Source: Lachnospiraceae bacterium
GTDB taxonomy: Bacteria > Bacillota > Clostridia > Lachnospirales > Lachnospiraceae
Assembly: GCA_024698885.1 (NCBI GenBank)
Contig: JAILQQ010000054.1
Span: 619-64,618, forward strand
Reading direction: 5' to 3'
DNA: 64,000 nucleotides
Under the pieces are notes generated by a model that was not told the DNA's origin, did not search any database, and worked only from the letters and a program-made list of their open reading frames with translations. Below are positions 7,656 through 48,141 of this stretch, piece by piece. Made by a program: the position numbers and the translations under genes. Positions within the stretch are counted from its first letter, which is position 1; each line of letters begins with the position of its first letter.

Positions 7656-9713
7656 ATGAAATTCAAAAAAATCAGTTCCCGTATGCTGGCCATCATCGTT
7701 CCGATCCTGATCCTGTCCATGGGGGTTATGACCGTGATCAGTGTCAGGGATTCCAGCAGCACGATCACCGAACAGATCAACGAACGCATGACCTCCGAGC
7801 TGAACGCGGCCGAGAAAGGCATCGAAGAAAGCCTGTCAGGCGTGACCGCCATGGCGGAAACCATCTCCGGCGCCGTAAGCTCCACCTATAAGGCGATGGG
7901 ATTGCCGTCCTTTGAAAAAATGTTAGCGGGGATCATCACAAGCAATGATATGGTCTTAGGCAGCGGCCTCTGGTTTGAGCCCTTTGCCTATAACAAAAAT
8001 AAGGAATATGTAGGCCCCTACATCTATAAAGACGGCGGTTCTACCGTCGTGACCTATGATTATGAGGGCCCGGAATATGACTATTTCTCCCAGGAATACT
8101 ATACGGCACCGAAGGCATCCAAAAAAACGGTCATTACGGATCCGTATTACGACCCGACCTCCGGTATCGTCATGTCCTCCTGCTCAACGCCGATCATCAA
8201 TGACAAGAGTGAATATGTAGGCTGTGTCACAGTCGATATGGAGCTTTCCTCGATATCGGAGCTGGTGGAAGGGATCAAGGTCGGAAAAAACGGCAATGCG
8301 ATCCTCCTTGACTCAAACGGCATCTTCTTAGCCGGTGTGTCCGGGGATAAGATCGAAGCCGCCGCCAATATCCAGAACGAGAGCAATGCGTCTCTGGCAG
8401 CCGCCGGAAAGCTGATCATGTCAAACGAAAAAGGCTCCACGACCTATACCTCTGCAGAGTTTGGTCTGGAGGATATCTACTATACAACGATACCCGCCAC
8501 GGGCTGGAAGGTCATGATCCAGATGCCGCGTTCCGAAACACAGGCGCCGGTAAAGCAGCTGGCCCTCATCATGATCGTCATCGCCGCGGCGTTTATCATT
8601 CTCGAAATACTGATCGTCATCCTGCAGGTACGGAGTATCGCCAAGAGCATCGGCAAGGTGAAGAATTTCGCCGGGACGCTCGCGGAGGGTGATTTCACGG
8701 TTTCACCGATCGAGGTCAGATCTGTCGACGAGCTGGGTGTCATGAGTACCTCCTTAAACGACATGTATGACAGCAACAAGGGCGTGATCAGCAGTATCGC
8801 CGACTATTCGAAGGAGATCGATGAAGCCAGCAGACGCCTGTCTGACTCGTCCAACGAATTAAACGATCAGTTTGATACCATCCAGAATCAGATGCACAAT
8901 GTAAACGGCGCCATGATGACCACAAGCGCCGCGACACAGGAAGTGAACGCTTCCACAGAAGAAGTGCTTTCCAACGTGAACCTCTTGGCCGGAGAAGCGG
9001 AATCCTGCATGGAGATGAGCCGCGAGATCATGGAACGCGCGGGCGACATCGAGCAGAAGAGCCGCAAGTCCTTTGATGAAGCGCAGAAGCTGACCACCGA
9101 GTTCTCCGAGAGGCTGGCGGAAAGCATCAAAAACGCGGAGGTCGTCGATACGATCAGCATGATGGCAGACGATATCTCCGGTATCGCGGGGCAGGTCAAT
9201 CTGCTTTCGTTAAACGCCTCCATCGAAGCGGCCAGAGCCGGAGACGCCGGCAGAGGCTTCGCGGTAGTCGCGACCGAGATCGGAAATCTGGCAGGCTCCA
9301 CCTCGGAAACCGTTTCCAGGATCCAGGAAACGATCCGGCAGGTGCAGGACGCCTTCGGGGAATTAAAGGATTCCGCCGGCGGGATCCTCGATTTCGTACA
9401 GAATACGGTGGCGCCGGATTATGATAACTTTGTCAGCGTAGCCGAGCAGTACGGAAATGACGCCAAGAGCTTCGAGAATGCCAGCAGCAAGATCTCCCAG
9501 ATGTCTGACAATATCAAGTCCATCATGAGCGAGGTGACGGACGCGGTACAGAATATCGCGGAAGCGACTCAGGATACGACGGATATCAGCTCACAGATCA
9601 TGAGCTCCATCGAAACAGCCTCCGAGCAGATCACGGATGTTTCCTGCATGTCCTCCTCGCAGCAGCAGATCGCTGACAGCCTGGCGGATACCGTCGGTAA
9701 GTTCAAACTGTAA
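7656..9713 (+). CDS. Methyl-accepting chemotaxis protein (Cache-like sensor, HAMP, signalling domain)
   Basis: The [15 protein letters not shown] start at 7656 follows AAAAGGAG. A transmembrane segment, a ~280-aa extracellular domain, a second transmembrane segment and a HAMP region are present. The signalling hairpin [31 protein letters not shown] is conserved. Confidence 0.93.
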
Positions 9714-9715
9714 GT

Positions 9716-9755
9716 TTGCGCCGATCCGGTCGGATCCTCCGACCGGATCATTTCC
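9716..9755 (-). repeat. Intergenic hairpin repeat (H3-type module with GATCATTTCC tail)
   Basis: TTGCGCCGATCCGGTCGGATCCTCCGACCGGATCATTTCC. The stem GATCCGGTCGGA/TCCGACCGGATC belongs to the repeat family described in the findings. Confidence 0.7.
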
Positions 9756-9771
9756 GCATTCCACACATAAT

Positions 9772-16962: not shown

Positions 16963-18444
16963 TCATATCTCCTTCGGAAGCGGTGTCTCTGCCGTCTCCA
17001 TAAATGCGCTCAATCTCTTTTTTGCCTCCGCGATGGAAAGGTTGGTTCCCGCGCCGGCCACACATCCGCCCGGACAGGCCATCCCCTCGATGAGGCACCC
17101 CTGCTTCAGCCCGGATTTTGCAAGCGTCAGCATCTTGCGGCACTCCGCCAGTCCCTCCGCGTGCTCGATATGGATCTCCGTGTCGGGGTATTTGGCGCGG
17201 ATACATTTTTCAATGGCGCTCGCTACCCCGCCTGCCGCACCGTAGCCTCTGGCGGCACCGGATGCGTCCTGCAGGCCATCCTCCGGCGTCACCTCCTCCG
17301 GATTGATGCCTTTTGCGTCAAAAATACCTAAAAGCTCCTCGTAGGTAATCACAAAATCCACGTCCGAACGCACGGTCCTTCTGCTGGCCTCCAGCTTCTT
17401 CGAAGCGCAGGGACCGATAAATACCACATCCGCGTCCGGATGCTCCTTCAGGATCTCCCTGGCGGTAGCCACCATGGGCGTCAGTTCCCTCGAAATGCTG
17501 TCAATGGTTTCCGGGAAAAAGAGCTTTGCTAAGTACATCCAGCTCGGACAGCAGGAGGTCAGCAAGAACGGGACCTCCTTTGTGCTCACCTTCTCCACAT
17601 AATGCTTGGCTTCCGCCACACAGCCGATATCCGCGCCGATAGCGGTCTCGACCACATCGTAAAAACCTAACTGCTTCAAAGCGGTTTTGACCTGTGCCTC
17701 CGTTGCGTTGCCAAACTGGCCGACAAAGGAGGGCGCTAACTCCGCGATCAGCTTCTTTCCCGACATTAACGCTTTGATCAGCTGGAAGATCTGGGATTTA
17801 TCCGCGATAGCGCCGAAGGGGCAGTGTACCATGCACTGTCCGCAGGAAACGCAGGTCGTCCGGTCGATATCCGCTCTTCCGTATTCATCACTGACGATCG
17901 CTCCCAACCCGCAGGCATCCGCGCAGGGACGGCGCTTATGGGAGATCGCGTCATACGGGCAGACACTGTGGCATTTCCCGCATTTCACGCATTTATCCTG
18001 ATCGATAAAGCTTTTTCCGTTTTGGATTGAGATCGCTCCCTTCGGACAGACCTCCACGCAGGGATGCGCGACGCACCCCATACACTGGTCCGAAACGATA
18101 TACATATTCTCCGGGCAGGCGTTGCAGGCGGAAGGGATGACCTGTAACAGGGGCGGCTCATAGTATTTTTCCGCCACATTCGATTCCTCCACCCCGGCGC
18201 TGACAGCCACCGGTTTGTTCTCCGGTCTTAATTTGATCCCGAGAGCCAGCCGCAGCCGCTCCCTGATCACGGCCCTCTCCCGGTAGATATTTCCCCAGTC
18301 TTCCGAAGAATCCATGCTGCAGAGCTCATAAGGAAGCATCTCGATATCCTCCTTCAGATTCTTCGAATGATAGGCTAGCTCCGCTACGGCCTTAAAGATC
18401 ATATGTCTGGTCTTTCTGACGTTTGTGTCCAGTCCTCTCTCCAA
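16963..18444 (-). CDS. [FeFe]-hydrogenase, monomeric ferredoxin-domain type (group B-like)
   Basis: H-cluster motifs TSCCPSW, GPCASKKLE and MACPGGCVAG, plus several CxxCxxCxxxCP clusters. TTG start behind GGAGAGAGGGAG. Confidence 0.85.
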   Translation of the reverse strand: MERGLDTNVRKTRHMIFKAVAELAYHSKNLKEDIEMLPYELCSMDSSEDWGNIYRERAVIRERLRLALGIKLRPENKPVAVSAGVEESNVAEKYYEPPLLQVIPSACNACPENMYIVSDQCMGCVAHPCVEVCPKGAISIQNGKSFIDQDKCVKCGKCHSVCPYDAISHKRRPCADACGLGAIVSDEYGRADIDRTTCVSCGQCMVHCPFGAIADKSQIFQLIKALMSGKKLIAELAPSFVGQFGNATEAQVKTALKQLGFYDVVETAIGADIGCVAEAKHYVEKVSTKEVPFLLTSCCPSWMYLAKLFFPETIDSISRELTPMVATAREILKEHPDADVVFIGPCASKKLEASRRTVRSDVDFVITYEELLGIFDAKGINPEEVTPEDGLQDASGAARGYGAAGGVASAIEKCIRAKYPDTEIHIEHAEGLAECRKMLTLAKSGLKQGCLIEGMACPGGCVAGAGTNLSIAEAKKRLSAFMETAETPLPKEI

Positions 18445-18462
18445 ACTCCCTCTCTCCTTTCC

Positions 18463-18679
18463 CTGCGCCGATTCTACTTTTCAGACGGATCATTTCCTCT
18501 CTGCACCGATCTGCCCCGCAGATCGTGCGCTTAGGCATGAACTTCAGTTCATGCCGATCCGGTCTGTTTTTCAGACCGGATCATTTCCTTATCTGCGCCG
18601 ATTTGCTCGCAAATCGTGCGCTTAGGCATGAACTTCAGTTCATGCCGATCCGGTCTGTTTTTCAGACCGGATCATTTCC
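18463..18679 (-). repeat. Tandem modular three-hairpin repeat (one degenerate copy plus two 92-bp units)
   Basis: The units start at 18501 and 18593. Each contains H1 GCGCCGATyTGC..GCArATCGtGCGC, H2 GGCATGAAC-TTCA-GTTCATGCC and H3 GATCCGGTCTG-TTTTT-CAGACCGGATC, followed by the ATTTCC tail. Confidence 0.9.
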
Positions 18680-18685
18680 TTATTC

Positions 18686-20794
18686 TCAACTTTTCTCTAG
18701 TCGGAAGCAGACCGCCTTCAGGTCTTCGTCAAAGATATATCGGAAAACACCGTCCTTAAGCGTATACTTCTCTTCTTTATAAGAATAGACATCCTTTATC
18801 TCATAATCTGCGGGAACAGGGATCCGGATCTCCTCCCCCTGTGCCCCGTGGAAGCCGTGAAGCAGAAGATAGGCTTCTGTTTTCTCCATGTTCTCCCGAA
18901 GGATCCCCTGCCATCCCTGCGGATGCCGGTATCCTGTCATTTTCGTCCCGTAATAACAGCTCCGTCCCTTTTTGATGACCGGAACCAGCCTTTTGTAAAA
19001 CGCAATGCCGTCCTCGATCAGCTTCCACTGATCGGCGGAAAGATGCAGCACATCTCCCGAAACGCACATCCTTCCGAGAAAGGTATTGGCGATGGAATAC
19101 GCGATCCGTTTCAGGCTGTCCGTTTCCCGGATCACGGCCCAGATCTGGGACTGCCTGGGCAGGATCACCCGGTGGAGGTTTGCCGCGATGATCGGGATCT
19201 CCTCGCATTCATGGGCGTCCGAGAACGAAGCCATCGCGCATTTCTGCATCATCAAAGGCTCCAGCTTATGGCCGCCCGAGGCACAGTTTTCAATGATGAT
19301 GCCCGGGATCTCCTGCTTTATTTTTTCCACAAAGGAAACCGAAGCCTCCTGATTCTGCCGAAGCCCCTCTCCCAGTGATTCCGCTCCGTCACAGCCGATC
19401 CCGGCTGTATCGTTGCAGTCTATTTTTATGTACGAAAAACCGTACGCTTTTAACGTCCCGATAACCTTTTCCGTCAGGTATTCCTGAACCGCGTCCTGCC
19501 TTAGATCCCAGAAACGTCGCGAAGTCGTCGTCAGAACCTGCCCGTCCCTTTGTAAGAGATGCTCCGTATCCTGATACGCCTCTGACGCGGAGCCGACGTT
19601 GTCGATCTCAAACCAGAGCCCGGGTTTCATCCCGGCTTCCCGGATCATTGCCGTTGTCTTCAAAAGTCCTTCCGGGAACAGTTCCTTCGAAACGTTATAG
19701 TCTCCCATCGAGAGATCCCAGGGAACCTCCGGCATTTTATACCAGCCGCAGTCGATCACAAAATAGGAAAAGCCCTTGTCCCGGATCGCTTCGACGATCG
19801 CCGCGATATTTTCGTGAGAGGGATTTCCCCAGGTCGTACAGTATTCGTTAAACAGCACCGGAAGACTCTGCTCCGTATCCGGTCCTGCGTCAAGTGTGCT
19901 GTCAAGGGCGGAGGTCAGTCTCCGGAAGATCTCCTCCTTATCCTCCCCACCGTAAACGGAAAGGAAAGCTTCGGGCGTCTTAAATTCCTCTCCGGGAAAA
20001 ACATCCTTCATCCAGTGCCCGAATTCTCTGTCCGCAAGGCCGCCCGAGATCTGCGCCTCTTCCCCCCTTCTGTAGACCTCCATCTGCCAGGAAGCGTTAT
20101 GGGCGACCGCCGCCCCCCAGAAAAGGTGATTGACACTGTCTTCGACCGCCATCACCGGAAAAAACCTGTTCACAGCCAGTGATCCTACCGCGCCGAAGCG
20201 TTCGCAGCGCACGGCATGACCGGTCCAGGAAGGCTCTAACTGCAGATCCTCAAAGGGGATGCTTTCCTTCCTTCCCTCCATGCTCCATACGCTCCGGATC
20301 CGGTGAAGGATCAGCGTATCCTTCCCGTCCTCTTCCATGAGGGGCGAGATCTTCCCTAGCGAAAAGCTCGACAGAAGCTCAAGGCTGACCTTCCTCGCCC
20401 CCTTGTTTTTAAAAATCGTGAAGCTTCTAAGCGCTCTGCCGCCTTCCGTGTAGACAAGGTGGTGGTGCACGCTTAAGCCCCTTTCATCCTTTAAAACGGT
20501 AACAATGTCCGTCTCATCCCCCTGCTTTTTCACCTGCTGGGCATCATAATGAAACAGGCCGGAAGCATCGTCCGTCCTGAGGGAAACGCCGGGAGAATAG
20601 CAGCCGGTATAGATATCTCCGGCAAGCTTTACCTGCACCAGGTTATCCGGATGGTCGTGCCCGGCATCGATCTGCCGCTCCTTCGCCTCAATCCCCGCGG
20701 GCATAAGGAGGAGCTCCGCGTTTTTCTTTGCGTCGTCCGTATAATACAGGGCCTGCATATCACCCAGCTCATATTTTTTGATCAGTTTCGTCAT
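18686..20794 (-). CDS. Alpha-galactosidase (GH36)
   Basis: 702 aa. FVIDCGWY, YIKIDCND and ENCASGGHK match the GH36 catalytic region pattern. Confidence 0.85.
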   Translation of the reverse strand: MTKLIKKYELGDMQALYYTDDAKKNAELLLMPAGIEAKERQIDAGHDHPDNLVQVKLAGDIYTGCYSPGVSLRTDDASGLFHYDAQQVKKQGDETDIVTVLKDERGLSVHHHLVYTEGGRALRSFTIFKNKGARKVSLELLSSFSLGKISPLMEEDGKDTLILHRIRSVWSMEGRKESIPFEDLQLEPSWTGHAVRCERFGAVGSLAVNRFFPVMAVEDSVNHLFWGAAVAHNASWQMEVYRRGEEAQISGGLADREFGHWMKDVFPGEEFKTPEAFLSVYGGEDKEEIFRRLTSALDSTLDAGPDTEQSLPVLFNEYCTTWGNPSHENIAAIVEAIRDKGFSYFVIDCGWYKMPEVPWDLSMGDYNVSKELFPEGLLKTTAMIREAGMKPGLWFEIDNVGSASEAYQDTEHLLQRDGQVLTTTSRRFWDLRQDAVQEYLTEKVIGTLKAYGFSYIKIDCNDTAGIGCDGAESLGEGLRQNQEASVSFVEKIKQEIPGIIIENCASGGHKLEPLMMQKCAMASFSDAHECEEIPIIAANLHRVILPRQSQIWAVIRETDSLKRIAYSIANTFLGRMCVSGDVLHLSADQWKLIEDGIAFYKRLVPVIKKGRSCYYGTKMTGYRHPQGWQGILRENMEKTEAYLLLHGFHGAQGEEIRIPVPADYEIKDVYSYKEEKYTLKDGVFRYIFDEDLKAVCFRLEKS

Positions 20795-27642: not shown

Positions 27643-27655
27643 TTCCGTTTTCCTG

Positions 27656-27686
27656 TCTGCGCCAATTTGCCTGCAAATTGCGCGCA
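27656..27686 (-). repeat. Intergenic hairpin repeat (H1-type), directly 5' of an SD
   Basis: TCTGCGCCAATTTGC-CT-GCAAATTGCGCGC. In sense orientation it is followed by CAGACAGGAAAACGGAAATG. Confidence 0.75.
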
Positions 27687-35998: not shown

Positions 35999-36011
35999 AA
36001 GGCCTCCTATG

Positions 36012-36043
36012 TCTGCGCCGATTCGCTTGCGAATCGGATCATT
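36012..36043 (-). repeat. Intergenic hairpin repeat (H1-type), directly 5' of an SD
   Basis: TCTGCGCCGATTCGC-TT-GCGAATCGGATCATT. In sense orientation it is followed by CAGACATAGGAGGCCTTATG. Confidence 0.75.
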
Positions 36044-36130
36044 GTTATTCGTATTTCCTGACCGTTGACTATTATAATTAGCGTAGGCTAACTTGTCAAC
36101 CCTCTTAAACCGCATCCCGGCATTTTTCGC

Positions 36131-36160: not shown

Positions 36161-36532
36161 TTATCCCCCGTATTTCTCCATATGGGCCTTGACCGCGTGA
36201 AAGGTTTCGTCGCTGATGTAATGCTCGATGCGGCACGCATCCTCCACAGCGATCTTTTCATCCACGCCGAGATTGATAAAAAGCCTGGTCAGCACGGTAT
36301 GCCGTTCATAGATGCGCTTTGCCGTCGCAGCGCCGGCTTCCGTCAGCTTCAGATAGCCGTCATCATCCTTCGTGACAAATCCTTCCTTCTTAAGCACGCC
36401 GATGGCACGGCTGACGGAGGGCTTGGTATACCCCAGATAATCGCTCACATCTATGCTGCGGACGGCCGCCTGTTTCTGCGAAAGCACATATATTGCTTCC
36501 AGGTACATTTCTCCGGATTCCTGTAATGCCAT
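36161..36532 (-). CDS. DtxR/MntR-family metal-dependent transcriptional repressor
   Basis: 123 aa. MYLEAIYVL...TKPSVSRAIGVLKKEGFV is a winged-helix region, and the dimerisation region is typical of the family. Confidence 0.85.
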   Translation of the reverse strand: MALQESGEMYLEAIYVLSQKQAAVRSIDVSDYLGYTKPSVSRAIGVLKKEGFVTKDDDGYLKLTEAGAATAKRIYERHTVLTRLFINLGVDEKIAVEDACRIEHYISDETFHAVKAHMEKYGG

Positions 36533-36554
36533 AATACTAACCCTCCTACCTTCC

Positions 36555-36674
36555 CGACCGGATCATTTCTGCGCCGATTTGCCCGCAAATCGTGCGCTTA
36601 GGCATGATCTTCAGATCATGCCGATTCGGTCTGCTTGCAGACCGAATCATTTCTTTGTTTGCGCCAATCTGCCC
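36555..36674 (-). repeat. Modular three-hairpin repeat, single diverged unit plus partial flanks
   Basis: Same H1-H2-H3 order as at 18501. The paired substitutions keep all three stems intact, for example GGCATGATC-TTCA-GATCATGCC and GATTCGGTCTG-CTTG-CAGACCGAATC. Confidence 0.88.
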
Positions 36675-36756
36675 CAGTTTACCATATATCTCCGCGCTGC
36701 GCAACGGAAGCCCCCGCCTCTTCCAAGGTCCCTGCATGGCGCGGAAAACCGTTAAG

Positions 36757-37482
36757 CTACTGCCCTTCCGCTCTCTCGCCGTACAGGCATGGTTCCCCTT
36801 TTTTCCCGGGGAAAAGGTATCCCGTCAGATTTCTGGCAACTTCGTCGTGCCGTCTCAGGATCACCTTTATATCCTCGCTGCAGAGCTTCATGGCCTGCAG
36901 GATCGAAAAGCGTATCATAAACATCAGATCCGTCCTGGCATCCGGCCCGTAGGCGCTCAGAAATTCGACGCGCAGACTCCCCGACGGCAGTCTGTGTATC
37001 AGAAGAAATCCGTTGATCCGGTTATCTGTCTCCAGATAGCAGGAGATATCCGGATCGAACCAGGAAAAAGGCAGCGATCCGAGATCCTCGACCACTTCCC
37101 GTTTTGTATGGAAGATGCAGTTCATCAGTCCCCGCCTGAAAAGAGGCTCATTGAGCGTCCCCAGAGCCCTCATGGCTGACGGCACCCTTTTTTTACTGAC
37201 AACGCCGAGACCGGAAAGATCCCTGACCGTAACGGTAAGATCCTCCCCCTCTTTTTCCGTAACGGAAAAGCCCGCGTCACGAAGGATATCAGGCAGTTCC
37301 CCCGATACCTCCCCGGGGAGCTCCGTAAGATAATCATCCGTTAGCAGGATATTCAGAAGATCCTGATCACTGTCCTCATCCTCAAAATATAGCAAACGAC
37401 AAAACTCTTTTCGTTTTGGCGTTTGCTGCGCCGGATTTTGGCCGCTTCCTGCGGCATATTTCCTTACAAAATCCGTGCGCAT
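36757..37482 (-). CDS. Hypothetical protein (C-terminal half weakly GNAT-like)
   Basis: 241-aa ORF, last gene of a tightly packed four-gene string. The GNAT resemblance rests on pattern only (GFLLIHRLPSGSLRVEFLSAYG). The start is uncertain because the SD abuts the ATG. Confidence 0.5.
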   Translation of the reverse strand: MRTDFVRKYAAGSGQNPAQQTPKRKEFCRLLYFEDEDSDQDLLNILLTDDYLTELPGEVSGELPDILRDAGFSVTEKEGEDLTVTVRDLSGLGVVSKKRVPSAMRALGTLNEPLFRRGLMNCIFHTKREVVEDLGSLPFSWFDPDISCYLETDNRINGFLLIHRLPSGSLRVEFLSAYGPDARTDLMFMIRFSILQAMKLCSEDIKVILRRHDEVARNLTGYLFPGKKGEPCLYGERAEGQ

Positions 37483-44653: not shown

Positions 44654-45406
44654 ATGCTGCTATATGCTCTGGCGCTGGCGCCGTCGATCATACTTTTGAT
44701 CTGGCTGCTTCGGATAAAAAGATATTCCCCTTACCCAAAGGGGATCGTTGCCGGAATGTTCGCCGGGGGAGCCGCATGCGCGGTGCTTGTCGGGATCATA
44801 TTCTGGGCGATCGATTATTTCCCCGTCATGCGGACCGTCGGATCAGAGAGGTTTTTTGAACTGTTTCTTTCGGAGGATCCGACAGAGCTCGAAAGCCTTC
44901 AGAACGAGCTCTCCCCGTTTGGCGGGTATATGACGCTCCCTTCCATTCTCTGGGAGAATTTTATATCCACCGCTGCCGCGGAAGAGATCGCGAAATACCT
45001 TGTCGCCGTTTTCTTTATCAAAAGGATCGACGCAAAGTACACCGTATTTGACGCTGTCGTATGCAGTTCGATCACCGCCGTCGGATTTCAGCTGATCGAG
45101 GATCTCATGTATCTCGACGGTACTTTAGTGACTGCCGTCGTCCGGGGCATAACGCCCTTTCACTTCACGTACGGAGCGATCATGGGATTCTTTATCGGAA
45201 GAGCCATTGCCACCGGAAATAAGCAGTACCGTCTGAAGGCGCTGCTCATTCCGATCCTGATCCACGGGATCTATGATTTCAGTATTTATCTGGTAGATGC
45301 AGACGACTGGTTCCTTCTGCTCTTCTTTGTCATATATGGCCTGCTTGCGGCACTCACAATCTATATCATCACAAGGATCCACAGGATGGGCAGAAGATGT
45401 TCATAG
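44654..45406 (+). CDS. prsW: PrsW-family intramembrane glutamic/metallo-protease
   Basis: AAAEEIAKY and HGIYDF motifs in a polytopic membrane protein. Confidence 0.8.
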   Translation: MLLYALALAPSIILLIWLLRIKRYSPYPKGIVAGMFAGGAACAVLVGIIFWAIDYFPVMRTVGSERFFELFLSEDPTELESLQNELSPFGGYMTLPSILWENFISTAAAEEIAKYLVAVFFIKRIDAKYTVFDAVVCSSITAVGFQLIEDLMYLDGTLVTAVVRGITPFHFTYGAIMGFFIGRAIATGNKQYRLKALLIPILIHGIYDFSIYLVDADDWFLLLFFVIYGLLAALTIYIITRIHRMGRRCS

Positions 45407-45413
45407 GTTCCGG

Positions 45414-46625
45414 CTAGCGCGGCGGCTGTCCGTTGCTTCCGGGCGGCGTTTCCCCGGGATCCTGAGGCTGTTGCGGCCTCCCGTTCATCTCTGTATCCTG
45501 CGGAGGCTCCGGCGCAGGATCAGAAGGCCCCTCCGGTCTCCCGGTCATCTCTGTCCCCTGCGGCAGCTCCGGGGGAGAATCAGAAGGCCCCTCCGGCCTC
45601 CCGGTCATCTCTGTCCCCTGCGGTTGCTCCGGCGCAGGATCAGAAGGTCCCTCCGGCCTCCCGGTCATCTCTGTCCCCTGCGGTAACTCTGTCGCAGGCT
45701 CCGAAGGCTTCTCCGGTCTCCCGGTCGTCTCTGTACCCTGCGGCAGCTCTGTCGCAGACTCCGAAGGCCTCTCCGGCCGCCCGGTCATTTCTGTTTCCTG
45801 CGGAGGCTCTGTCGGAGGTTCAGAAAGCCCTTCCGGCCTCCCGGTCGTTTCTGTTTCCTGCGGAAGCTCTGTCGCAGGTTCTGAAGGCCTCTCCGGCCTT
45901 TCAGTCATCTCTGTATCCGTCTTTCCGCTTTCCGGCGGTAACGGCGGTGCTTCCTGTCCGTTTTCCGGATATTGTTCCAGCATGATCACCTTCCCGGGGC
46001 TCATGTTCCCGTCATGGGCTCTGGTCTTCAGATCCCGATCCACGATATAGGATTCGCCGTGGATACTCCTGTCCGGGTGCTTCCTGCCCTGCTCTTCGTT
46101 CCAGGCTTCCATTTCTCCTCTGGTTTTCTTTTCAAGCCTCCCGTCGCGGAACAGATGACTGTCTACCGTCATGATGACAGGCGTTTCCTCTCCGATATAA
46201 TCCGCCTCATCCAGCGCGTTTAACGTCATTTCGATCGCGGTATCGATATCCTGCCCCAAAACCTCCGAAGAGATTGTCGAAACGATATCTTCCCCATCCT
46301 CATTATAAGAAGCGAAATCGATCACCCGGTCAAAAAAGTTCAGGTCATACCGCAGGGACGGATTCAGATCCAGCGTAACCGTACTGTAGGCAAAAGTATT
46401 GGCGGAAAAGCTTCCCACAAGGATCAGCACGGCCGCTGCCGCCGCGGTCAGCTTTGCGGCGCGTGAACGGGTAAAGGAAAGAAGCTTCTGCCCCGTTCCC
46501 TGTCCGCTCTCAAACTCGATCGACTGACCGATCCGGTAGCTTTTGTTCCGGATATTATAATAGGTGCCGTCCATCGCCAAAACTGCGGCTCTGTCGCCCT
46601 GAATACTCATTACTACCGCTTTCAA
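45414..46625 (-). CDS. rsgI: RsgI-like anti-sigma-I factor with Pro/Glu-rich tandem-repeat C-terminus
   Basis: TTG start after AGGAGAG. The N-terminus MKAVVMSIQGDRAAVLAMDGTYYNI is an RsgI_N-type domain. A single TM is followed by an LDLNPS motif. There are about 7.5 repeats of 20 aa (TEMTGRPEGPSDPAPE.PQG). Confidence 0.8.
   Translation of the reverse strand: MKAVVMSIQGDRAAVLAMDGTYYNIRNKSYRIGQSIEFESGQGTGQKLLSFTRSRAAKLTAAAAAVLILVGSFSANTFAYSTVTLDLNPSLRYDLNFFDRVIDFASYNEDGEDIVSTISSEVLGQDIDTAIEMTLNALDEADYIGEETPVIMTVDSHLFRDGRLEKKTRGEMEAWNEEQGRKHPDRSIHGESYIVDRDLKTRAHDGNMSPGKVIMLEQYPENGQEAPPLPPESGKTDTEMTERPERPSEPATELPQETETTGRPEGLSEPPTEPPQETEMTGRPERPSESATELPQGTETTGRPEKPSEPATELPQGTEMTGRPEGPSDPAPEQPQGTEMTGRPEGPSDSPPELPQGTEMTGRPEGPSDPAPEPPQDTEMNGRPQQPQDPGETPPGSNGQPPR
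45435..45917 (-). repeat. Coding 60-bp tandem repeat (about 7.5 to 8 units) inside rsgI
   Basis: The near-identical unit CCCTCCGG(Y)CTCCCGGTCATCTCTGTCCCCTGCGG... is visible by eye. The antisense ORF it generates is an artefact. Confidence 0.9.
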
Positions 46626-46640
46626 CGTTTTCTCTCCTGT

Positions 46641-46670
46641 TCTGCGCCGATCCGCCTGCGGATCATTTCC
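46641..46670 (-). repeat. Intergenic hairpin repeat (H1-type with GATCATTTCC tail), directly 5' of the rsgI SD
   Basis: TCTGCGCCGATCCGC-CT-GCGGATCATTTCC, between the sigI stop and the rsgI start. Confidence 0.75.
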
Positions 46671-46685
46671 ATTTTATAGTATCAG

Positions 46686-47441: not shown

Positions 47442-48141
47442 TCCTTATCCTGGTAAAAAATCCTGTTTCTGTGCGCGATCCTTCCGTATTCCCCGCCGTG
47501 TCTGTATCACAGGAAGTCTCCGCGGATGGTTTCTGATCGGATCCCATCGGCATCGGTGCCTTCATTTCAACCGTGATGCCGTTTTCTCTGAGCGCCGCGA
47601 TCAGCGCTTCTTCCGCTTCTCTTGCGGCAGTTCTGAGCGAATCCAGATCGGTTTCCCCTTCTGAAGAGCCGTCTCCTTCCCTCAAAGCGTCAAATGCTTC
47701 CCGTTCAGCCTCCCGTGCCGATTCATACGCCGCAAGCAGCCCGGAGAGCGTCGACTGTGTCTCCTCATCCTCGATCGAGGAGATCGCTTCCGCCACGGCT
47801 TCCGGATCGATCATGCCGCCTTTTTGTCCGCGCCCCATGGGCGGTGCCTGCTGCCCGTCAGGTGCTTCCCCCTCCGGCAGCTCCGGGCGTTCCCCTTCAT
47901 TCATTTCCGGCAGCTCCGGACGATCCCCCTCGTTCATCTGGGGCAGTTCCGGGCGCTCCCCTTCATTCATTTCCGGCAGCTCCGGACGTTCGCCCTCCGC
48001 GAAAGCTCCCTGTGCCTCTCTGCCGCCGCCCATCCGGTTTCCGTTCCCGGGTGCCGCCAGGGCACAAACGGAAAGGGTCACTGCCAAAATCCCCGTTAAG
48101 ATCGCTGTTGATACTTTTTTACTGTTTTTTACTCTTCTCAT
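47401..48141 (-). CDS. Secreted hypothetical protein with 11-aa GERPELPEMNE repeats
   Basis: The MRRVKNSKKVSTAILTGILAVTLSVCALA signal peptide follows AAAGGAGAG. Four 33-bp tandem repeats lie at 47874..47997. The C-terminal half is acidic and helical. Confidence 0.75.
   Translation of the reverse strand: MRRVKNSKKVSTAILTGILAVTLSVCALAAPGNGNRMGGGREAQGAFAEGERPELPEMNEGERPELPQMNEGDRPELPEMNEGERPELPEGEAPDGQQAPPMGRGQKGGMIDPEAVAEAISSIEDEETQSTLSGLLAAYESAREAEREAFDALREGDGSSEGETDLDSLRTAAREAEEALIAALRENGITVEMKAPMPMGSDQKPSAETSCDTDTAGNTEGSRTETGFFTRIRNAASDFFGKFTKG

Follow-up and report, generated by a model that had tools for sequence, protein, structure and literature searches.

A three-hairpin module upstream of a DtxR-family repressor gene in a Lachnospiraceae genome belongs to a modular palindromic repeat family

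The ends of IS200/IS605 elements and of their gene-less derivatives (PATEs) have subterminal hairpins, no terminal inverted repeats or target-site duplications, and a strict orientation. In integron attC sites, structure is conserved over sequence: they are recognised as single-stranded hairpins, and lie between co-oriented genes just past stop codons. The REP, BIME and REPIN sequences of Proteobacteria are short extragenic palindromes present in hundreds of copies, in transcribed operon spacers and in mosaic or modular arrays; they lack terminal inverted repeats and target-site duplications, and a folded single strand is presumed to be the form that is recognised, compensatory changes and folding as single-stranded DNA having been described for REPIN hairpins (PMC3116915). 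The BOX elements of S. pneumoniae (reviewed, with RUP and SPRITE, in PMC3049150) are likewise modular, with a variable number of modules, in a Firmicute host; they are co-transcribed as 5' or 3' extensions of operons, admit several compatible pair types, and their mobilising enzyme is uncertain. The element described here resembles the REP and BOX groups in these respects: it is one copy of a lineage-restricted, modular palindromic repeat family whose positions differ between species.

The window (the whole 64-kb stretch of DNA that was analysed) contains, on the - strand, a gene of the DtxR/iron-dependent repressor family (36161..36532; PF02742, 6e-14, and PF01325, 3e-10), with its start codon at 36530-36532 and a Shine-Dalgarno sequence, AGGAGGG, at 36541-36547. 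The 224-nt spacer directly upstream of this gene is the site of a module of three perfect hairpins in the order H1-H2-H3 (36569-36654, + strand). It begins with a left linker, CTGCGCC (36569..36575), whose primary sequence is conserved, followed by H1 (36575..36592), in which CGATTTGC (36575-36582) and GCAAATCG (36585-36592) enclose the loop CC. A linker, TGCGCTTA (36593..36600), whose columns are at least 90% conserved in an alignment of 94 copies from several genomes, leads to H2 (36601..36622), with arms GGCATGATC (36601-36609) and GATCATGCC (36614-36622) and loop TTCA. H3 (36623..36648) follows immediately, with arms GATTCGGTCTG (36623-36633) and CAGACCGAATC (36638-36648) and loop CTTG, and the module ends with the right linker ATTTCT (36649..36654), a variant of the family's ATTTCC, which in the gene-sense direction is a Shine-Dalgarno-like AGAAAT or GGAAAT.

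This H1-H2-H3 arrangement is the minimum-free-energy and the centroid fold whether the module is tested as RNA or as DNA. The RNA of the gene-sense strand folds with -57.3 kcal/mol (z = -5.2) and the + strand as DNA with -31.3 kcal/mol (z = -5.8), and none of 200 shuffled sequences was as stable in either test. In both the RNA and the DNA folds, GCGC in the left linker (36571-36574) pairs with GCGC at 36594-36597, so that H1 gains four further pairs around a bulged T (36593); among 20 copies with variants of this extension, five are compensated (GCAC/GTGC), 14 have G:T and one has A:C. The full unit is flanked by two incomplete ones, all on the + strand. Between it and the Shine-Dalgarno site of the repressor gene lies a remnant of a preceding unit, CGACCGGATCATTTC (36555..36569), which comprises an H3-type right arm and end linker and matches the conserved right end of the family, GACCGGATCATTTCC; on the other side, TGCGCCAATCTGCCCC (36660..36675), recognised from the sequence and the family's left-end consensus, is the start of a truncated next unit, of which nothing but the left linker and H1's left arm is present.

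In this 3.7 Mb genome the family accounts for 371 nhmmer matches, 235 of them at least 80 nt long, in 318 arrays that make up about 0.8% of the genome. Since 52 of the matches lie less than 150 nt from contig ends, the repeat evidently breaks assemblies, and the real copy numbers are higher. The plan of a unit is CTGCGCC, H1, GTGCGCTTAGG-H2, H3, ATCATTTCC; in minimal forms a lone hairpin is enclosed by these same end linkers, and composite architectures also occur. Units are arranged head to tail (neighbouring matches on the same strand 60 times, on opposite strands six times). Nearly always they occupy the interval from a gene's stop codon to the Shine-Dalgarno site of the gene that follows, oriented so that the mRNA contains the reverse complement of the element: 156 arrays are flanked by co-directional genes to which they are antisense, and 57 more adjoin a gene start in divergent contexts. 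The median distance from array to gene is 10-12 nt, and, where a Shine-Dalgarno-like motif was found, it starts 0-3 nt past the end of the element in 58 of 74 cases. Many operons, including those for trp, sugar transport and hydrogenase, have ribosome-binding sites abutted by elements in this way. About 16% of arrays are downstream of a gene in terminator-like orientation; at the DtxR-family locus, H3 with its tail ATTTCTTTGT scores terminator-like on the + strand, opposite in sense to the genes on either side.

No Rfam family matches at its gathering score anywhere in the 64-kb window, the best permissive match being RAGATH-28 (18 bits vs a gathering score of 45.3, E = 0.73), and a search for similarity of the repeat to plasmids and phages gave none. 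Flanks of the same copy match one another no better than permuted flanks in any way suggestive of a target-site duplication (5.46 vs 5.34 +/- 0.07), the difference reflecting only the Shine-Dalgarno-like composition of both flanks, and the ends, CTGCGCC and GGAAATGAT, are not complementary and so do not form terminal inverted repeats. Both features are expected of a MITE, and neither was found here.

The family is confined to a few rumen species of Lachnospiraceae. It is present in five of 50 genomes of the genus (G000, G191, G018, G197 and G003) and in none of 150 other genera of the family. An exact 16-mer scan of 596 Gb of contigs, for which a word of this length is too short, gave 78 loci, of which 76 were chance matches; the only real copies (at L053 and L060) were both in metagenome-assembled genomes of Lachnospiraceae. 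A site that is filled in one species is in most cases empty in another: at least seven G018 sites and about ten G191 sites are empty, or have only short remnants, in G000. Expansion has taken place independently in three species, and the consensus sequences are species-specific, differing from one another by compensatory pairs (at pair 7 of H3, 92% of G000 copies have G:C and 96% of G191 copies T:A, and pair 5 of H2 is T:A in G000 and C:G in G191 and G018). One site is occupied in three species, with stems that are perfectly paired and different in each, and among orthologous copies there is also an indel of one base that is matched in the two arms of H3.

All of these genomes are metagenome-assembled, and may lack multi-copy insertion sequences and plasmids, a limit on how the following searches are to be read. 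With permissive thresholds, too, searches for PF01797 (Y1/RAYT) gave nothing in G000, G018, G191 and G197; the fifth carrier, G003, has such a gene, as do nine of 14 members of the genus that lack the repeat, and none of these genes adjoins a repeat copy. A search for an autonomous parent, with left and right ends flanking an open reading frame, gave two candidates, both of which enclose ordinary operons.

The preliminary description had reported that the copy upstream of the DtxR-family gene differs by paired changes from two full units that form a tandem array elsewhere in the window (18486..18692, + strand), and the sequence bears this out for H2 (A:T to T:A) and H3 (C:G to T:A), the arms in units 18501 and 18593 being GGCATGAAC/GTTCATGCC and GATCCGGTCTG/CAGACCGGATC. 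The contrast drawn for H1 (CGATCTGC/GCAGATCG) holds for the unit at 18501 only, as that at 18593 already has CGATTTGC/GCAAATCG, like the DtxR-associated copy; the two units differ from each other by this one H1 pair (C:G vs T:A), one loop and one linker base. Metagenome contigs that cover 18250-18850 break inside the repeat.

The wider claim of the preliminary description, that the stems covary, proves to hold far beyond chance and beyond linkage between copies. In the 94-copy alignment 97.2% of stem cells are paired, and double changes are found at 21 of the 28 pairs (seven of eight in H1, six of nine in H2, eight of 11 in H3), amounting to 300 cells, a level reached in none of 500 shuffles; controls in which the pairing was slid gave 23-44% paired cells and at most 30 with double changes. 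Changes that break stems are far from being as frequent as those that preserve them, only 2.8% of cells being unpaired. Among 200 copies, 95.4% of cells are Watson-Crick pairs, and Cramer's V is 0.53-0.92 within pairs and 0.05-0.35 between them, adjacent columns included; the top 15 of 1540 column couplings by APC-corrected mutual information are all predicted base pairs. Nearest-neighbour copies show 124 double changes (null mean 25), adjacent tandem units differ by 33 double and 31 single changes, and several pairs of tandem units have two to five double differences and no single ones. The H2 stem is very diverse in G018 and G191, yet paired. In all three stems pairs have come through many double changes that arose independently. 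The coupling is therefore specific to base-pair partners, and is not due to subfamilies or to physical linkage; hairpin pairing is truly constrained, and some form of intrastrand pairing is kept. Hypermutability of methylated GATC was considered as a cause of the paired changes and dropped, because changes driven by methylation would not couple pair partners; GATC is over-represented throughout the genome, not just in the element.

The loops drift in sequence, as had been noted, and also in length, and because the changes in their length are not multiples of three, no peptide is conserved. It went too far, however, to say that selection does not act on primary sequence: of 87 consensus positions, 45 reach 90% conservation or more, and among them are the unpaired linkers CTGCGCC, GTGCGCTTAGG and ATCATTTCC. 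Stems are broken by changes at 2.3% per site, close to the 3.0% per site at which the conserved linkers change, and the two kinds of change are correlated across copies (rho 0.24, p = 6e-4). Of the suggestion that structure is maintained in RNA or in single-stranded DNA, the part concerning intrastrand pairing stands, but nothing points to RNA, since G:U wobble is not enriched on the mRNA strand. Mismatches of the G:T and A:C types are both rare in the stems (A:C-type variants recur in G000), and those of wobble type number 54 on the mRNA strand vs 76 on the opposite strand in the three stems of 200 copies, one vs 14 in the H1 extension, and seven vs 17 in G191. This strand signal is weak and uneven (H3 97:58, H1 extension 26:10, H1 36:35), the H2 numbers of the genome-wide module scan being left out because a loose anchor drew in false modules.

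With the repeat seen as a new family of a familiar kind (REP- or BOX-type) and not as a dedicated regulatory RNA, it seems somewhat more probable than not (we would put it at about 0.55) that it is a mobile element like these, whose hairpins are needed for its own spread. Pairing would then be kept mainly because the spreading machinery recognises a folded single strand, probably of DNA, as for REP/REPIN sequences and the ends of IS200/IS605. Each species' burst of copies would start from sources obliged to keep their hairpins intact, with slow decay of the copies after insertion, and the bias in orientation and position would be the result of a filter, since the other orientation would put the terminator-like H3 and its T-rich tail inside operons. 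The mobilising enzyme would not be a Y1/RAYT transposase detectable with Pfam. Against mobility of this kind it must be said that the searches found no enzyme, parent element, target-site duplication or terminal inverted repeats, and that the three-species site, with its perfect but differing stems, also fits maintenance in place. Moreover, variants at different pairs assort almost freely, contrary to what a simple master-copy model leads one to expect; such a model would have to invoke recombination, recurrent transitions or a multitude of sources.

Compared with REP, BIME and REPIN sequences, the repeat is unusual in that the RAYT (a Y1 HUH transposase) is absent from four of its five carrier genomes, in its conserved flanks (CTGCGCC and ATCATTTCC, with no GTAG motif), in having head-to-tail units in place of inverted doublets, and in the three distinct hairpins of each unit with their conserved single-stranded linkers; one end abuts a Shine-Dalgarno site, and the host is a Firmicute. 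In BOX elements, boxA pairs with boxC in the manner of terminal inverted repeats, whereas here each module folds on itself and H1 is not paired with H3; BOX has no comparable placement between stop codon and Shine-Dalgarno site nor a comparably strict orientation, and the two are apparently dissimilar in sequence. As in the PATEs derived from IS200/IS605, hairpins (H1 and H3, which have a common GAT...ATC stem base) are next to the two ends and there is no target-site duplication. A short conserved TCCTT-like motif adjoins the left end on its outer side and reappears at the right end, which would favour tandem insertion; it precedes the left end in comparisons of filled with empty sites, but is at most a candidate target motif, being indistinguishable from the complement of a Shine-Dalgarno sequence. 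Besides the scarcity of Y1 transposases among carriers, a difference is that the presumed active strand would be on the leading-strand template where genes are co-oriented, contrary to the IS608 rule. Local GC skew tracks gene orientation (r = 0.93), and the only 12 arrays that separate replication strand from gene strand are split 9:3 toward gene orientation, which is suggestive only. With attC sites the repeat has in common the precedence of structure over sequence, the probable recognition of single-stranded DNA hairpins and the placement at gene junctions, but instead of one cassette array there are copies at more than 300 dispersed loci among housekeeping operons, and the R''-L''/L'-R' architecture is absent.

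A bolder version of the mobile-element idea, which we offer tentatively and think unlikely, is that this is a new type of structure-dependent mobile DNA of Firmicutes that spreads without Y1/RAYT, inserts in one orientation exactly at the junction of stop codon and Shine-Dalgarno site, brings its own Shine-Dalgarno-like end, and has its hairpins kept Watson-Crick by a strand-specific step in single-stranded DNA, possibly together with templated self-correction. If this were so, there would still be an enzyme to find, or a replication-coupled copy-choice mechanism that targets ribosome-binding sites.

Might the hairpins instead act in cis in operon mRNA and be selected locus by locus, blocking 3'-5' and 5'-3' exonucleases or directing processing, and so uncoupling the stability or translation of neighbouring cistrons? 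Such effects are known for some copies of REP, BIME, ERIC and BOX (reviewed in PMC3049150), and the element is always in operon transcripts, in one orientation and abutting a Shine-Dalgarno site; the gene-sense RNA forms the same three hairpins (z = -5.2), the stems are kept as well as the conserved linkers, and those of the three-species site are perfect and different. This is possible, but we think it unlikely: G:U pairs are not in excess on the mRNA strand (the overall bias is the opposite), most sites are not shared between sister species, and the DtxR locus is empty in two of these and partly deleted in a related strain. Furthermore, selection at individual loci would not be expected to give consensuses specific to species, and the orientation bias can be explained by selection against the terminator-like orientation with no positive function. 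Action on the antisense strand, with H3 and the T-rich tail stopping antisense or convergent transcription between genes, is much less probable still. Although H3 with ATTTCYTT scores terminator-like on the displayed strand, where there is also a weak excess of G:T wobble, and although the 16% or so of arrays downstream of a gene have a fitting orientation, UUUCCUU makes a poor U tract, termination would not need H1, H2 or the linkers, which are just as well conserved, and the copy number and patchy distribution are left unexplained.

Structural selection would not be needed at all if, at replication, either intrastrand template switching or repair templated by the hairpin carried a change in one arm over to the other, and correction of this kind by template switching is documented (PMC8794818). 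It would account for strictly Watson-Crick pairing with both mismatch classes rare, for double changes as common as single ones even in adjacent and presumably recently duplicated units, and for the paired one-base indel in both H3 arms of orthologous copies. It does not explain the equal conservation of unpaired linkers, nor the copy number, fixed orientation and patchy distribution among species, and a symmetric DNA process predicts no strand bias between G:T and A:C, of which a weak one exists; as a sufficient cause it seems improbable, but it can act alongside spread dependent on hairpins without taking its place. A classical REP/REPIN family mobilised by RAYT would likewise be made up of short extragenic palindromes in hundreds of copies, with compensatory stem changes as in REPINs (PMC3116915) and without terminal inverted repeats or target-site duplications; it is largely refuted, and at best very improbable, given that PF01797 is absent from four carriers and present in nine of 14 non-carrier members of the genus, that units run head to tail (60 vs 6) and not as inverted doublets, and that a GTAG-type 5' motif is missing. 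Finally, the position of the module in the 224-nt spacer directly upstream of a repressor gene might suggest that it is dedicated to regulating that gene, for instance as an operator palindrome or as a leader RNA that senses metal. The way the module is distributed rules this out: it occurs some 370 times beside unrelated genes. Rfam has no match to it, and covariation this free, with up to four types of pair, speaks against recognition of a specific sequence in double-stranded DNA. When orthologous spacers in sister species are compared, as the preliminary description proposed, the DtxR loci of G191 and G197 prove to be without the element, and that of G191 has a different palindrome (AGTTAG-N6-CTAACT). 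In a related strain, represented by an 833-nt contig from a bovine gut metagenome with about 5% other letters, the 80 nt from 36580 to 36659 are absent, 36579 being joined to 36660 with 3 nt of microhomology. Because the copy is absent in two sister species and 80 nt of it are missing in the related strain, selection at the DtxR locus is doubtful, and the constraint is more likely to be on the spread of the repeat family; any effect of the 36569-36654 copy on the DtxR-family gene is incidental.

It follows that annotators should avoid labelling these hairpins, or the further copies of the module found at over 300 gene junctions elsewhere, as RNAs or operators that regulate a particular gene. 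Elements set against ribosome-binding sites may nevertheless affect gene expression in rumen Lachnospiraceae. With its hundreds of copies, three species-level expansions and both filled and empty sites, the family is a clean natural data set on the upkeep of stems, in which selection on spread, selection in mRNA and templated repair can be weighed against one another as sources of compensatory change; it is also a REP-like family without RAYT in most of its carriers.

Simpler members of the family are also present in the window, all on the + strand. A single H1-type module, CAATTTGC/GCAAATTG (27653..27680; family D5), and two minimal elements with one hairpin have the paired H1 variants that had previously been quoted for them: at 36009..36048, CTGCGCC is followed by GATTCGC-TT-GCGAATC and GGATCATT, and at 46638..46677 by GATCCGC-CT-GCGGATC and ATTTCC (both in families D5 and D9). 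In a third minimal element (9713..9761; family D2), a stem of the H3 type stands directly between the two end linkers.

The copy at 36555-36674 (+ strand, as throughout this reading of the sequence) opens with the remnant of a preceding unit, CGACCGGATCATTTC, which is followed by the left linker CTGCGCC, the first hairpin H1 (CGATTTGC-CC-GCAAATCG, 36575-36592), the linker TGCGCTTA, H2 (GGCATGATC-TTCA-GATCATGCC, 36601-36622), H3 (GATTCGGTCTG-CTTG-CAGACCGAATC, 36623-36648), the right linker ATTTCT and the first part only of a truncated next unit, TGCGCCAATCTGCCCC, as the preliminary description had it. The two full tandem units with which it was compared there (18501 and 18593, in the array at 18486-18692) have the stems GGCATGAAC/GTTCATGCC and GATCCGGTCTG/CAGACCGGATC, so the reported paired changes of A:T to T:A in H2 and C:G to T:A in H3 are real. 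The contrast drawn for H1 holds against the 18501 unit but not against the 18593 unit, whose H1 stem is that of the copy studied here; the variants quoted from single-module copies, at 27653, 36009 and 46638, are correct. The predicted fold consists of H1, H2 and H3 both for gene-sense RNA (z = -5.2) and for + strand DNA (z = -5.8), none of 200 shuffles being as stable in either test, and in both folds H1 is lengthened by GCGC:GCGC pairing around a bulged T. A DtxR-type repressor is encoded immediately downstream (36161-36532, - strand). In the gene-sense direction the element directly follows a candidate promoter not called by a consensus scan (36676-36704, - strand: TTGCGC, a 17-nt spacer and TAAACT, with TGG in front of it as an extended -10); if it is real, most of the 5' UTR belonging to the DtxR-family gene would consist of the element. 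A 241-aa ORF further upstream (36757-37482, - strand) has no Pfam match.

An HMM built from three window copies gave 371 matches in the 3.71 Mb source assembly, 235 of them nearly full length, in 318 arrays; with 52 matches at contig ends, this count understates the number of copies really present. Neighbouring units are head to tail in 60 cases and inverted in six. There are also minimal elements, with a single hairpin (of H1 or H3 type) directly between end linkers CTGCGCC and ATTTCC, so the unit with three hairpins is a composite. The family includes more modules than these three: in sister species (Lachnospiraceae bacterium UBA3814 and G191, another genome of the genus) a fourth palindrome, TTCGATATTTGC-loop-GCAAATATCGAA, not seen in the window, lies inside H1 loops or is appended to units (L119:9721-9828, L112:10568-10750, L118 and L053:6150-6369).

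Within the 200 copies parsed from the source genome, 95.4% of stem cells are Watson-Crick pairs, and many stem positions have two to four pair types (at pair 10 of H3, TA 72, AT 67, GC 29 and CG 16). Partner columns are strongly associated (Cramer's V 0.53-0.92) and different pairs, adjacent columns included, weakly so (V mostly 0.05-0.35; 0.10 for H1 positions 5 and 6), which rules out subfamily structure or short conversion tracts as the source of the coupling. The top 15 of 1540 values of APC-corrected mutual information are all predicted pairs. When 94 copies were aligned (70 from the source genome and 24 from three others), 97.2% of cells were paired, and double changes were counted in 300 cells and at 21 of the 28 pairs, a level reached by none of 500 shuffles; with the partners slid by 1-3 columns, pairing fell to 23-44% and double-change cells to 30 or fewer. 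Between nearest-neighbour copies there are 124 double changes, where the null model gives a mean of 25; between adjacent tandem units, 33 differences are double and 31 single. The covariation claimed from a few copies is thus real and specific to pairing partners, and the hairpins have been kept through many independent paired changes. Loop sequences vary, with length steps that are not multiples of three, and no reading frame is preserved, in agreement with the earlier statement that a peptide is not what is conserved. Per site, changes that break a stem (2.3%) and changes in the conserved linkers (3.0%) are about equally rare, and the two increase together across copies.

The element as displayed is antisense to the flanking genes, so mRNA holds the reverse complement of the sequence first described. 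Arrays lie between two co-directional genes in 156 cases and in 57 adjoin one member of a divergent gene pair at its start, at a median distance of 10-12 nt from that gene. On the left the flank usually reads as a start codon and Shine-Dalgarno site in reverse complement, a Shine-Dalgarno-like motif beginning 0-3 nt past the element's end in 58 of the 74 cases with such a motif within 25 nt; on the right it often opens with a stop codon, again in reverse complement. H3 with its T-rich tail has a terminator-like score on the displayed strand, a simple reason for a presumed purging of the other orientation from operons. Selection in mRNA would be expected to leave many G:U wobbles on the mRNA strand (A:C on the displayed strand) and few A:C mismatches. 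Displayed-strand counts of G:T and A:C types are 76 and 54 for the three stems and 14 and 1 for the H1 extension in the 200 copies; 97 and 58 for H3, 26 and 10 for the H1 extension and 36 and 35 for H1 in a genome-wide scan; and 17 and 7 in G191 and 7 and 2 in G018 (a further congeneric genome). An excess of G:U on the mRNA strand was seen in none of these sets, and the commonest H2 variant of G191 (10 of 26 copies) has a T:G pair on the displayed strand. The strand bias is weak and uneven, recurrent A:C variants also being found in the source genome; pairing is essentially strict Watson-Crick, and nothing in the wobble data favours the mRNA strand. Of the original proposal of structure in RNA or single-stranded DNA, the kept pairing stands and the mRNA strand is left unfavoured.

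A covariance model of the unit found no copies in 150 other genera of Lachnospiraceae. Carriers are five of 50 genomes of the genus: the source genome, G191 (at least 64 copies), G018 (at least 54), G197 (eight) and G003 (two). When flanks of G018 and G191 copies were mapped onto the source genome, at least seven sites from G018 and about ten from G191 lacked the element there (empty, or with a few left-end-like bases), and a few sites were filled in two or three species. The family is thus limited to a few species, at positions that differ between them. At one site common to three species (C190:10662, L080 and L112) every copy is perfectly paired; several pairs are not the same in all of them, and in H3 there is a further difference, a one-base insertion or deletion that is itself paired. 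Species consensuses likewise differ by compensatory pairs (H3 pair 7 is G:C in the source genome and T:A in G191; H2 pair 5 is T:A in the source genome and C:G in G191 and G018).

We infer that the constraint acts mainly on spread, because species consensuses differ in this compensatory way, close relatives gain and lose copies, stems and linkers decay equally and the mRNA strand has no wobble signature. What the spreading machinery recognises would be a single strand in folded form, probably of DNA, as in REPINs, in which compensatory changes are likewise common (PMC3116915); that hairpins of interspersed repeats in bacteria undergo compensatory change is already known. It is possible that the repeat serves in mRNA as a stabiliser or processing site, roles discussed for other repeats (PMC3049150), and the gene-sense RNA folds stably; the wobble counts lend this no support. 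Templated self-correction of palindromes (PMC8794818) is also possible, and could act jointly with a constraint on spread. A dedicated regulator of the DtxR-family gene is excluded: no copy lies within 1.5 kb of the orthologues in G191 and G197, and in a strain about 5% diverged, represented by a contig from a bovine-gut metagenome, 36579 is joined to 36660, so that 80 nt of the module are missing there.

As to the machinery, PF01797 (Y1/RAYT) was not found in the source genome, G018, G191 or G197, all metagenome-assembled, so that multi-copy insertion sequences could be absent from the assemblies. It was found in G003 and in nine of 14 genus members without the repeat, and no repeat copies adjoin PF01797 genes; classical REP-RAYT membership is largely excluded. 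The element's ends are not inverted repeats, no target-site duplication was found in the flank test, and no autonomous parent element was found. The family had no match in Rfam or in plasmid and phage collections, a text search for Lachnospiraceae with 'repetitive extragenic palindromic' returned unrelated papers only, and the family appears to be undescribed so far.

Some further features may be recorded. Y1_Tnp (RAYT-like) genes with open frames of 230-280 aa occur in many members of the genus, namely G001, G003-G007, G011 and G013-G015, with no three-hairpin repeat nearby, and may serve a different REP family. Upstream of the DtxR orthologue of G191 (L104:1330-1350) is a palindrome, AGTTAG-N6-CTAACT, absent from the source-genome spacer, that could be an autoregulatory operator. 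The source genome nearly lacks CTAG (399 sites; O/E 0.03 from base composition, 0.20 from Markov expectation) and is strongly enriched in GATC (42,512 sites, or one in about 87 bp; O/E 2.9), biases for which restriction-modification or repair systems may be responsible. The intergenic segment 30737-30904 of the window contains two direct repeats of 84 nt that are 98% identical and unrelated to the hairpin family, and coding sequence at 45397-45974 and 47843-47997 contains tandem repeats (periods 60 nt and 33 nt).
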